Assembly (NCBI GenBank): GCA_040954595.2
Contig: CM082585.2
Location: 7,589,808 to 7,653,807 of the forward strand
DNA: 64,000 bases
Origin: Balanoglossus misakiensis
Taxonomy: Eukaryota > Animalia > Hemichordata
Reading direction: 5' to 3'
The number at the start of each line of letters is the position of its first letter. Position 1 is the stretch's first letter. Positions 28,275-40,957 of this stretch are shown one piece after another. A program made the position numbers and the translations under genes. The notes below the pieces were generated by a model that was not told the DNA's origin, ran no database searches, and saw nothing but the letters and a program-made list of their open reading frames with translations.

Positions 28275-28967
28275 TCACATCCGCGGTGCCTGGGGCAAGT
28301 CTTGTCGATGTTTGTCTTCTTTCGAACCGAGACATATTCCGCACAAGGTGGCGAAAAACCTCACAATCTCGCACACGGTGATCACCGACAGGCCGACGTA
28401 TAAGCCGAGGGTTCCGCCCACATCGCTCAGAAGGTCTTCCCACTGTGACGTCATAAGCAAGAGAGGAAAAAAAATGATATATATGGCGAGAATGGGGTGT
28501 ACACTAGGTGTAAGGTTTTCGGTACTGACCAAAAATGAAATGGTGGAATGTGTAATATCCGGTCATGAACTGAGCCACGACAACTGGTCGCTCGGTATGT
28601 TTCAGTGATTAGAAAAACATTAACAAGAAAATAAACAAAATAATATCAAAAGTTAGCGACTTTGCCCAAAGGGAGCTGATCATCACCAGAGAGGATAGTT
28701 TTCTTACCATGTAAGCTGGGTGTTCAGACGTTGTCTCGTAATTCAGCGATTCAAAATAAACATTCAGTCGGACTAGATTAGATCTAAGTGAGAGAAACGT
28801 GGATTGGTAAGGAAACAGCACGAAGTATAGTAACCCACAACAATCATATTTGATTGGGAAACTTGATAAACATTACAATTTTAATTGGGGCGCTCCCAAA
28901 GAAATAATCAACGTTTTCGAATTGAAAAAATCTGTGTCCGCTGTTCTCTAGCCCGTTAGCCGAAAAC

Positions 28968-29057
<90 letters not shown>

Positions 29058-38000: not shown

Positions 38001-40957
38001 ATAGGTTTTTGGGGTGATATGTGTCTCTGTCCCTAAAAATTGTGATTAAAAATTTGTTGTCGCGAACCACACAAGTTACTTTAATTGGTAATTTCAGAAA
38101 CATGTAGATGGGACTTTATCACCCGCCTATTGATGAAACACTAGCGGAGAATACAGTGTCATAAATATTTCAGCTTTTAATTAATTTCGAGTGTGCGTGA
38201 GAATGATTAAAAAGGTAAGCCAGGTGCAGTGTTTAACTACCGTGAAAAAACAACAGTATTCTTTTAGAAGTTCCACACTGCCTTGCGCGCTAACAATAGG
38301 ATATATAGTTCCAGCCACACCCTGGATGCCGAGGGTTCGCGTTTTGTGTCTATCGCACATGCATTACGCACTGCGAGCATATTTCCGACTTGTAGAGAGC
38401 ACACGCCACTTTGCATATTACCGTAAAACGTCTGTACGGCGTATGACAGGTGTTAGTCGCATATCGGCCATGTTTATGATTACTCTTTTACGATTGTTTT
38501 GAAAGGATGATGGGAACTCTCTTTTTGCGACCGTGGCTGCCGTTACACCACGAATGGTTACACGAATGACAATACAAACAAAACAAACCAGACTATTTAG
38601 TTTAGTTTAGCTGCACTCACTGTAATATGGGGCGACGAAGTTGTTCTCCAGGATCAGCATATTACTGTAGATGGAGTCCCTGACGGCGCTCCGCCTCAGT
38701 TTGTTTGTGTTGCACACAGTTACAGAGGGAAACTCCAACATCTTCTCCGACACCAAGAACACCTGGTGATCAGAACACAGCTGAATTTCAGCACAGACTT
38801 TCAAGTACCCACTGGAACATGCTATCTGTTCGACGGGTTGGATGAATTGTGATATAAGTAAAATCAGGCGCTAATATATACAGTACCATGGTGATCTGCG
38901 ATCTTGTTTATTTTAATAAACTACGAAATATAAATTTTCTCCCCATAAAATAACAATTATAATAGAAAGAATGGTGTGGTAAGCGCGATAAAAATACCCA
39001 GTTACCTTCACGGAGACATTGAACTCAAAATATTGCACCAGCAGCAGGGTCATTTGGACCAGCATTAACCCGGCTGCCGAGACGACGATGGCCGCCCATG
39101 TTACACGAGAGAAGCTCGACTTTGCGCTGGTGATGTGCACAATGCCGTGCGCTGTCGTTTCCTTGCTGAAGTCTTCTAGAATGTGCTTGAATGATCCCTG
39201 GGGAAGTTGGTCTTCTTCTGGGTCGGCCTGGCTGCCCTCCCGTCGGGATTCGCCCTCGGGCGGTCGGTCTTTCTCGGAAACCTTGGCGTGTCCGTTCTTG
39301 GAGCAGCTCTCCTGCACAGTGATGACGTCAGCGCCGATACGACTTCTTTTTAAGGACAGGATCGGATACGGCGAATTTGACTCGGTCTCTTGCAAACTGG
39401 AACGGAAAGAAAACCCAAATGAAAACACACCACCGACATCTGCCCGCAAATTCCCCACACAAGGCAATGGAATCTGGTAAAGATACAGGTGTGAAATGAT
39501 ACTAAGACACCTAATCTTAATACCGCACATGCATGCGATAACTTGGTCACGACAACTTTACTAAAACCCGGAGTGCAACTTTATTCATTCGCCATTTCCA
39601 TATGAAAAACAGTTATCATACAAGGGGAACATTCGTCGAAGTTCATCACGTTGGTAAATGTAATATGTTGAGTGGTTATTTTAATTACGCATGTTCACAC
39701 CATCGTTCATCGATTATTATGACATCAATTATCAGAGCACAATGAACGCATGACGTCTCATTTTCGCATCAGTTACTTCGGGTTATAAAGAGATCTTATT
39801 TATTTATGATATCTTCAACCACCGCCCATTCGTGACCTTGATTAATATTGCCCTGGCTCTGTTGACTCTGAAACTATTCCCAAGCTGACGACAAAGAAAG
39901 AAACTCATTGTATAAAGTTGCCTTAAATCATTTGGAATCCATAAGTAGTTTTTTTCCCCTGAAAGAAACAGAGAAATGTTGACGCTAATGGCCAGGTACC
40001 TTTAATTCCGTTCTTATCAAAAGTTATCACACGATCCTTAAAGAAACATATAATGCTTGCTTTGAAGTAATTTTACACATTAGCACTTGCAATGTCCACG
40101 ATTTCTCCAGAGATATCATACTGCTCTATTAAGGTCCACCAGGATATCGAACAGATAACCTTGCTCCTTGTTGTCTATTTTGTATTTATGTGCTGCCATT
40201 ATTTCAGTGAAAGAAACTTCAGAGAACCTGGCAACATGTATTGAGTCGCATAAGCGCGGATCTGCATCAGTAAATAGTTTTGCACAATCCTGCAATCGAC
40301 CGTCGCCTGTCGACTTATGTGAAACAGAGCGGGGGTCGTGTAAGAAATTGTATCTCTTATTTTTTAGCTCGGCTATTGAACGGCGTTCGAACGTTCCACT
40401 AGAGGTAGAGAATAATTGCGATTATACCTGTACATATTCCAACGCCCATAGGTCAAACATGTAGTGTTTACATGGCCAGTTGCAAAGACAGTTACCAAAG
40501 CACAGCACATCACAGCACAACACAACACAGAACAAACTAGTCCGTGAAAGAACACCGGAAAACCAGGCAAAACAACCAGAATGTGATGTCCAGCGTTTCG
40601 AAAACAGTAAGGCTTATTTTTAGCGTGCGCTCACCCTCAATCCCTAAGTCAAAATGTTTTTTTTGTCGTGATGTACTCGCTACTTGTAGACTGTATACAG
40701 TTCACACAGATAGGCACCAGCGTTTCGCTCATCAAACTAAATAAATTGCATTTTTGTATCCACGTCAACCTACCTGTAGCTGTGTGACGTATTTGCCGGA
40801 CAATCGAAAAACATACGCGCAATGTGTTGGTCAGAGCTGTCATGTTATGACATTTCATGAAAAAAACTTACCTACGCTCAACGCTTGTGTTGGTGTGGCC
40901 ATATAGCCAGGATGATCGGTATGTGACCGGGGTCGTGAAATAGTTGCCCTTATCCAT
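28275..40957 (-). CDS. DEG/ENaC (ASIC/ENaC superfamily) channel subunit with LDLa x3, F-type lectin x3, PAN/apple and LDLa inserted in the extracellular loop; ~24 coding exons, ~1,300 aa
   Basis: Candidate ATG 40957 (MDKGNYF...). Exon 39396-39006 has TTAHG + TM1; 38762-38621 FPSVTVCNTN; insert 37761-32891; 32628-32337 GHQAEDFILQCTY; 31846-31740 YGNCFHFN; 31501-31338 GLSLTLFTEQSEY; 30954-30841 PYGNC; Cys-rich thumb CEKAC...CGC and CTCPPPC; SQWPS; LNVYFESLNYE; last exon WEDLLSDVGGTLGLYVGLSVITVCE (TM2, GxS filter); stop 28275. All junctions are phase-compatible. Confidence 0.88.
28970..29082. repeat. (CAT)n/(CAC)n microsatellite in a channel intron
   Basis: About 30 CAT units followed by CAC units. 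Confidence 0.95.
30632..30715. repeat. (TCAC)n/(TCAT)n microsatellite
   Basis: Tandem TCAC units. Confidence 0.92.
32695..32782 (+). mobile_element. Most complete copy of the ~90-bp mini-element, flanked by TTAA on both sides
   Basis: TTAA-CCCTTTCATCACCATGGTTCAGTCCAAA...GGGTGGGG-TTAA; TTAA target and CCC/GGG ends are typical of piggyBac-type elements. Confidence 0.65.
32891..33043 (-). other. Fourth LDL-receptor class A exon inside the channel gene
   Basis: CPASFIRCTSGECVHPYQICDTLFDCADRFDELGC; 153-nt phase 1-1 exon. Confidence 0.88.
33095..33365. repeat. Compound (TACA)n/(TGCA)n/(CA)n microsatellite in an intron
   Basis: Tandem TACA, then TGCA, CACG and CA units. Confidence 0.97.
33375..33662 (-). 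other. PAN/apple-like exon inside the channel gene
   Basis: VSLHKCLHTCYYWKLYSCRSFDFHHATHTCTLH fits the PAN pattern C-x3-C...C-x-S-F...C-x-L; 288-nt phase 1-1 exon. Confidence 0.8.
33824..36912 (-). other. Three F-type (fucolectin) lectin domains, two exons each, inside the channel gene
   Basis: FTL1 36912-36706 + 36253-36035; FTL2 35577-35356 + 35141-34932; FTL3 34565-34335 + 34042-33824. Motifs NVALRKPAEQSS, AVDG, CTH, WWRVDL, NRxDCC, GRYV, LCEVEV. Confidence 0.9.
36310..36550. repeat. Compound (TTCA)n/(TCAC)n/(TCAG)n microsatellite
   Basis: Long tetranucleotide array in the FTL1 intron. Confidence 0.97.
37136..37761 (-). other. Three LDL-receptor class A exons inside the channel gene
   Basis: 37761-37642 [36 protein letters not shown]; 37504-37379 CGDDQFRCNSGSELGICISNDLLCDKVSTCYGGEDEDNC; 37252-37136 CADEDFQCVTSLECIESFHICDGTYDCRDGSDESITIC; each is phase 1-1. 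Confidence 0.9.

Follow-up and report, generated by a model that had tools for sequence, protein, structure and literature searches.

DEG/ENaC channels are known to be gated by protons, peptides, bile acids, proteases and force, and the finger of one of them, FaNaC, is involved in ligand binding. The present analysis concerns a gene of this family in a 64,000-nucleotide stretch of the acorn worm Balanoglossus misakiensis (contig CM082585.2, positions 7,589,808 to 7,653,807), hereafter the window, whose predicted protein carries LDLa, F-type lectin (FTL) and PAN modules in the finger region of the channel. Several described systems share part of these features. Vertebrate ENaC (SCNN1A/B/G/D) has in common with it the fold (Z 33.3 to 6wth_C, on the model presented below), the HG motif, the G/S-x-S filter and an insert after finger helix alpha1. 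According to passages of PMC6197857, this ENaC insert, the GRIP domain, lies between alpha1 and alpha2, wedges the finger against the thumb and gates the channel. GRIP is short and furin-cleaved in subunits alpha and gamma, whereas the protein from the window has 704 residues of folded binding modules at this place. FaNaC (PDB 7yvb and 8on7), the best-scoring channel by sequence for a relative of this protein (E 2e-42), is ligand-gated, but its ligand is a short peptide and it has no appended domains.

The nearest precedent is found among nematode EGAS proteins, in which a DEG/ENaC domain is likewise fused to shuffled extracellular modules; these are however EGF modules, not LDLa, FTL or PAN, and passages of PMC10424705 report the proteins as silent in oocytes. 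The C. elegans degenerins MEC-4, MEC-10 and DEL-1 share with the window's protein the concept of tether gating and the presence of extra extracellular regulatory segments, but their tether proteins are encoded by separate genes, whereas here the binding modules belong to the channel chain itself. Among F-type lectins, eel agglutinin (AAA, 1k12) and striped bass FBP32 (3cqo) have the same fold and fucose motif as the FTLs of the window, and two exons per domain with flanking phase-1 introns (passages of PMC12221842) are found in both cases; AAA and FBP32 are soluble trimers, unlike the window's FTLs, which are part of a channel chain.

The gene model comprises 24 minus-strand exons between positions 40957 and 28275 (Table 1). 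Their borders were checked for AG and GT and splicing by script gave a protein of 1,319 residues plus stop, with no internal stop. All 23 acceptors are AG and 22 of the 23 donors are GT; the GC-AG intron after exon 16 has its donor at 31740 (minus strand), where use of a nearby GT gives a frameshift. Exons 4 to 14, which encode residues 207-910 (704 residues), have phase 1 at both ends without exception (11/11) and lengths divisible by three, unlike the channel introns of the gene, which are of mixed phases; an exon-shuffling signature is thus supported for the module exons. A preliminary description, made from the DNA letters alone, had placed junctions at 38621, 37761, 32891 and 32628, all of which proved exact, and had claimed an open frame with phase-1 introns around every module, as was found here. 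Its estimate of about 630 extra residues was too low: the module exons amount to 704 residues and 810 separate FPSVTVCN from GHQ. For random stretches of the window of the same lengths, the joint probability of all being stop-free is about 6e-12, a rough value, the borders having been chosen with the motifs in view. AATAAA hexamers are located at 27987 and 27892, past the coding part of exon 24.

By every sequence and fold test run, the protein is a member of DEG/ENaC. The complete scaffold announced previously was recovered from the spliced protein with all its motifs: HG (residues 112-113), FPSVTVCN (170), GHQAEDFILQC (988), GNCFHFN (1020), GLSL (1044) and the GLS of the second transmembrane segment, TM2 (1281-1283). 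The sequence hallmarks of the family (HG, FPxVTxCN, GNCxxFN, Cys-rich thumb, G/S-x-S filter) are present and the pore motifs are intact. Two hydrophobic stretches (124-152 and 1272-1303) flank a large ectodomain, and Pfam ASC (PF00858) matched exons 2, 3, 17 and 24, two of these matches being above cut-off. No R-x-K/R-R furin-type site was detected in the ectodomain, for which reason furin-type activation was rejected for this protein, and no PPxY (PY) motif was detected in the chain; the protein lacks these GRIP-cleavage and PY features of ENaC proper (SCNN1), and its slot holds other modules.

Pfam scanning, performed exon by exon on 19 single exons of the gene, and profile mapping gave the array order LDLa, LDLa, LDLa, FTL, FTL, FTL, PAN, LDLa, in agreement with the preliminary description. 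LDLa was above cut-off in exons 4, 5, 6 and 14 and PAN_1 in exon 13; the F5/8-type lectin match was above cut-off in exons 9 and 11 and below it in exon 7. Exons 8, 10 and 12, which encode second halves, had no Pfam lectin match, yet they align with the FTL domains of relatives. The EGF plus ASC combination of nematode EGAS was not found, since Pfam detected no EGF in the 19 exons or in relative P0003. The acidic calcium-site motif is kept in all four LDLa modules. In FTL3, the fucose motif H...R-x-D-x4-R/K is complete (H659, R686, D688, C689-C690, R693) and aligns without gaps with eel agglutinin from the His through the vicinal cysteines of RxDCC; the His-Arg spacing of 26 is the same as in the aligned agglutinin, while F-type lectin reviews print X24. 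The calcium motif h2DGx is matched by FTL2 and FTL3 and deviant in FTL1. Three fucose sites per subunit were considered and rejected: judged from its motifs, the lectin array of each subunit consists of one intact site (FTL3), one altered (FTL2) and one degenerate (FTL1).

The same architecture occurs in two other acorn worms. With exon 15 as query, five proteins were retained among 31 candidates, all from Ptychodera flava; the C-terminal 409 residues of P0003 retrieved 34 proteins of 719-2,289 residues, 33 of them with LDLa and ASC and 15 with FTL. FTL, LDLa and ASC were combined in 14 of the 34, the fifteenth being partial with FTL and ASC. The full domain order was found in 10 P. flava and 5 Saccoglossus kowalevskii models (P0016 truncated), and several P. 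flava paralogs lie on one contig. Thirteen relatives compared over the whole chain were 42-62% identical to the window's protein, every module exon being matched. Models XP_070538276.1, XP_070538275.1, XP_070537889.1, XP_070538285.1 and XP_070539351.1 of P. flava and XP_077869752.1, XP_077865309.1 and XP_077867809.1 of S. kowalevskii have the same domain order and length; they are automated only and named 'uncharacterized', and the window's protein adds one more member, distinguished by its FTL triad pattern. The earlier guess that similar automated predictions might exist was therefore right, the RefSeq models of both species being uncharacterised.

Among the 14 proteins, mean pair identity was 55-70% for LDLa (LDLa1 being the best conserved module, 70%), 43, 55 and 53% for FTL1 to FTL3 and 37% for PAN, against 56% for palm and thumb, 71% for TM2, the most conserved region, and 19% for the cytosolic N-terminus. 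The LDLa and FTL2/3 modules are thus conserved like the channel. A full H/R/R triad was read in FTL2 of 9/14 proteins and, on a strict reading, in FTL3 of 9/14, with at least one full triad in 12/14. In a tree of 50 channel C-terminal halves, the FTL type formed one clade of 17 rows, one partial model included, with support 98/97; its first branch is a Ptychodera-Saccoglossus pair, so at least two FTL-type copies predate the split of these genera. Isoforms and P0005, P0014, P0035, P0036 and P0051 were left out of this tree, and named vertebrate ENaCs were in neither this tree nor the 183-row tree mentioned below. Although the N-termini otherwise share just the 19% identity noted above, a short aromatic/basic motif located within the first 20 cytosolic residues (40957-40872) is seen again in several paralogs from P. 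flava and S. kowalevskii and may be a binding site. The second copy of exon 1 (42264-42179) is likely an alternative first exon, either copy being able to splice to exon 2.

RefSeq isoforms are usually backed by RNA reads. The P. flava isoforms X3, X4 and X5 lack residues 289-327, 207-288 and 207-327, which are the spans of exons 6, 4-5 and 4-6, and X5 joins a channel exon directly to a lectin exon; two further isoform pairs show 3-residue differences at the exon 1/2 and 9/10 junctions. Because these borders coincide, intron positions are common to the window's gene and P. flava. Trees of channel, LDLa, FTL and PAN for the 14 proteins displayed no strong conflict, and all 8 strong channel splits recurred in the FTL tree. 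Isoform borders, tree congruence and shared architecture, all taken from gene models of other species, make it very probable that a single gene carries channel and modules and yields one polypeptide.

For structure prediction, AlphaFold2 was run with a 42-row alignment on P. flava isoform X5 (P0038, 1,187 residues), a 60% identical relative without LDLa1-3 (pLDDT 77.9, pTM 0.49). The model superposed on the ENaC gamma ectodomain (6wth_C) with a root-mean-square deviation (rmsd) of 2.9 over 349 residues (Z 33.3; model residues 155-1139), across the array gap; it reached Z 31.7 with FaNaC and about 29 with ASIC1. FTL2-3 matched the tandem fucolectin FBP32 (3cqo; Z 27.4, rmsd 4.5, 286/293 residues) and FTL3 eel agglutinin (1k12; Z 21.9, rmsd 1.7), while the structural match listed for FTL1 was a chitosan-binding module (Z 18.6). 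The two channel halves are predicted to rejoin into an ENaC-like, hand-shaped ectodomain with the array looping out after helix alpha1. In this model, the array lies between the short helices at 183-197 and those from 809 onwards; by sequence, ENaC gamma aligns with the relative as far as residue 114 and then from residue 248. Placement of the array in ENaC's GRIP slot is well supported, although not as a residue-level match. FBP32 and eel agglutinin are trimers and the FTL ends lie close together, according to passages of PMC5712786; such adjacent ends suit insertion into a loop.

The slot itself is used more widely, a point that the preliminary description had not raised. In nearly all LDLa-bearing relatives, the distance from the start of FPxVTxCN to the first LDLa is 37-44 residues, and the last module gives way to a conserved segment. 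Other hemichordate payloads are LDLa arrays alone, PAN/kringle, CUB, CUB/TSP1 and ShK; in echinoderms, sea stars have SRCR and a brittle star has HYR. When 1.84 billion representatives were searched, the best 150 matches were evaluated; 133 of them were new, and of these 53 were Pfam-scanned and 10 named. Among the matches listed, LDLa was present in 36 of the 133 new representatives, and it lay between the channel halves in all 26 that had LDLa and both halves; these matches included the acoel Symsagittifera (LDLa, LDLa/CUB), snails (LDLa) and one C-type-lectin form. Amphioxus forms had kringle, F5/8 and Link but no LDLa. Two listed relatives nearly fill their nucleotide records (848 residues on 3,048 nt and 1,047 on 3,957 nt), which are likely transcripts. 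A quick 183-row tree joined acoel, ambulacrarian and amphioxus forms (0.998) with weak deep support; since the snail and C-type-lectin forms fell elsewhere, repeated use of the slot in evolution is suggested. Relations among payload types were weakly supported in the 50-row tree. Payloads change between relatives, and the finger loop would thus be a swappable sensor slot.

Some of these relatives deserve separate mention. The snail proteins P0159 and P0174, as well as P0176, have LDLa or a C-type lectin in the finger of distant channels and probably represent independent insertions. P0106, P0091 and P0092 (two of them from amphioxus) are DEG/ENaC with inserts of 730-1,070 residues made of kringle, F5/8 and Link, without LDLa. 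In P0027, P0033, P0074 and P0114, some 500-680 residues precede the first transmembrane segment (TM1), with an FN3 match in two, a recurring feature that is either a genuine N-terminal extension or a gene-model fusion made more than once. The sister channels P0050, P0052, P0053 and their kin have low-complexity loops of 200-450 residues with multiple furin-like sites in the same slot and are candidate protease-gated invertebrate channels, judging from these sites. Furin-like sites occurred in 14/16 module-free close relatives and in 10/39 modular ones, with 36 sites in 4,778 residues for the plain loops versus 14 in 29,125 for the modular forms, all rows being hand-picked.

Full-text searches of the open literature retrieved no description of an LDLa- or lectin-bearing DEG/ENaC, although subscription papers and supplements might hold a mention; the statement of the preliminary description that no functional account was known agrees with these searches and with the portions consulted of family phylogenies and reviews. 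The term LDL had no match in the sections covered of PMC8791634, PMC10148893, PMC10507113, PMC9949801, PMC9234716, PMC9822975, PMC10424705, PMC5712786 and PMC12221842, domain terms looked up in two supplements of PMC4729200 were not present, and a word look-up for 'channel' in two F-type lectin reviews gave nothing. Numerous uncharacterised ambulacrarian channels of clade B are pointed out in one phylogeny, modules being unmentioned in those passages (PMC10507113). In the ESM Atlas, the C-terminal part of P0003 gave ASC clusters at 0.84-0.87, retained as leads only, and a nematode ASC+EGF cluster of 59 members; whole P0003 gave no usable match. The architecture is thus real, conserved, present in automated annotations and, as far as searched, undescribed. 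Most modular relatives bear the name 'uncharacterized' or one taken from their modules (two are 'LRP2-like'); such names, and phylogenies that trim the insert away, may be the reason why the group went unremarked.

The position of the array and its motifs make glycan gating or tethering plausible, and a glycan or extracellular matrix tether model has been discussed for ENaC and MEC-4 (passages of PMC10148893). In a channel of three subunits, the lectin domains would make up a crown that displays three intact FTL3 sites, in keeping with F-type lectins forming trimers. Fucosylated glycans carried by mucus, matrix or microbes would be ligands of FTL3 and perhaps of FTL2; their binding, or the pull that flow exerts on them once bound, could move the alpha1/alpha2 finger helices against the thumb and change the open probability, in analogy with the loss of the GRIP wedge in ENaC. 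The LDLa repeats, which nearly all relatives have whatever the payload, may be calcium-stabilised stalk or adaptor elements, whose optional exons would tune reach. Gating of what would be a sodium channel by fucosylated glycans bound to the lectin crown and acting through the finger is tentatively preferred here, with chances slightly below even. Several observations weigh against it. A Gln (Q512) replaces the His of the triad in FTL2, and FTL1 is without the RxDCC loop in 14/14 proteins; P0004, which is among the closest kin, and P0007 have no full triad (2/14 paralogs). The predicted model is a stand-in without LDLa1-3 and not the window's own protein, and its pTM is 0.49, with pLDDT <50 in the linkers flanking the array (residues 200-209, 734-744 and 783-791); with linkers as floppy as predicted, binding might fail to be transmitted to the gate. 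The free variation of payloads among relatives also fits adhesion or positioning, and the four nematode EGAS proteins (EGAS-1 to -4) gave no current as homomers in oocytes (passages of PMC10424705).

A channel with a lectin of its own in the gating slot would be the first candidate found for direct conversion of glycan binding to current, with a bearing on the way in which food, microbes or flow are sensed by mucus-feeding deuterostomes. The fixed slot, for which at least 8 types of payload were counted in hemichordates, echinoderms, an acoel and amphioxus, provides a natural series on finger-pore coupling, which could inform MEC-4 and ENaC tether gating where the tether belongs to the channel itself. 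In a broader and more doubtful view, the protein would be a glycan-gated ion channel and would represent the lectin type within an ancient DEG/ENaC group of bilaterians whose finger loop is a plug-in socket; exon shuffling would there create ionotropic receptors for sugars, mucus, matrix, microbes and proteins, allowing fast electrical pattern recognition in marine invertebrates.

Another possible explanation, rather unlikely but the best of the alternatives, is that the array only holds, clusters or traffics the channel via glycans or matrix, gating being due to a peptide, protons, sodium or leak. The low-confidence linkers and the pTM of the P0038 model are compatible with it, CUB, SRCR, kringle, TSP1, HYR and LDLa are general adhesion modules, and MEC-4 channels are localised by extracellular matrix proteins (passages of PMC10148893); the insertion point is nevertheless fixed, with anchors on both sides, and lies in the slot that gates ENaC. 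It is also conceivable, though improbable, that the LDLa repeats capture a basic protein or a protease and that the array is an inhibitory cap, displaced or cut like GRIP, with the lectins as accessories. Conservation of LDLa1, the kept acidic motifs, the presence of LDLa in 33 of the 34 matches as shared core of the group and the furin-like sites of the plain-loop sister channels speak for such a sensor, but the ectodomain has no R-x-K/R-R, most of the hand-picked modular relatives have none either, and one P. flava isoform is devoid of LDLa1-3 altogether. A non-conducting or modulatory subunit, whose channel scaffold would serve as a receptor for adhesion or pattern recognition or be active in heteromers only, is very unlikely: the silent EGAS homomers and the many paralogs, several on one P. 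flava contig, that could form heteromers are in its favour, but the HG motif and the filter are intact and TM2 is the most conserved region. Least probable of all is an annotation artefact in which the channel splices 38621 directly to 32628 and the modules form a nested transcript; the preliminary description had warned that this phase-1 junction was possible, and the skip product is indeed open (615 residues) and the joining evidence comes from other species, but intron 3 contains no convincing start exon of signal-peptide type, its two candidates both lacking strong hydrophobicity, and intron 14 is devoid of a poly(A) hexamer. Moreover, the 18 matches of 232-741 residues include no complete skip form of the FTL subfamily (two close ones being N-terminally truncated models), and isoform borders, tree congruence and the 26 representatives with LDLa between the channel halves speak against it.

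Table 1. Features of the channel gene in the window (exon limits of two-exon domains in brackets)
Feature	Position	Strand	Evidence
Exon 1: start codon, cytosolic N-terminus (residues 1-28), phase-2 end	40872..40957	-	Splicing script; P. flava isoform pair with 3-residue difference at matching junction
Second copy of exon 1: 86 nt, ATG, same phase-2 donor	42179..42264	-	19/27 residues identical to exon 1
Exon 2: cytosolic region, HG motif (39149-39144), TM1	39006..39396	-	Pfam, motif positions
Exon 3: FPSVTVCN, finger helix alpha1, conserved pre-insert anchor, phase-1 donor	38621..38762	-	Pfam, comparison with relatives
Exon 4: LDLa 1	37642..37761	-	PF00057 E 2e-10
Exon 5: LDLa 2	37379..37504	-	PF00057 E 3.5e-7
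Exon 6: LDLa 3	37136..37252	-	PF00057 E 9e-9
Exons 7-8 (36912-36706, 36253-36035): FTL 1, degenerate sugar site without RxDCC loop	36035..36912	-	Pfam, relatives' profiles
Exons 9-10 (35577-35356, 35141-34932): FTL 2, triad Q512/R539/R546, vicinal Cys	34932..35577	-	Pfam, motif alignment
Exons 11-12 (34565-34335, 34042-33824): FTL 3, intact triad H659/R686/R693, D688, C689-C690	33824..34565	-	Motif alignment
Exon 13: PAN/apple domain	33375..33662	-	PF00024 E 1.9e-7, above cut-off
Exon 14: LDLa 4, last phase-1 module exon	32891..33043	-	PF00057 E 2.3e-7
Exon 15: conserved post-insert finger helices, GHQAEDFILQC	32337..32628	-	Splicing script, comparison with relatives
Exons 16-23: palm, beta-ball, Cys-rich thumb, knuckle; GC donor in exon 16	28708..31846	-	Splicing, alignment
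Exon 24, coding part: TM2, GLS filter (28394-28386), short tail without PY motif, stop	28275..28442	-	Pfam, motifs

Regarding the genomic neighbourhood, a rhomboid protease gene (PF01694) lies directly downstream, at 26663-24796 on the minus strand, with no evidence of a link to the channel. Upstream, between 44000 and 62000, minus-strand neighbours comprise a WSC-domain exon (47169-46810), two lipase genes, a scramblase and at least two epoxide hydrolase genes; the open reading frames at 45364-44792 and 44431-44033 had no Pfam match. The region 250-16300 contains TPR exons on the plus strand (1729-2088 and 14539-14859) and an exon of the AKAP28 family on the minus strand (7806-7486).

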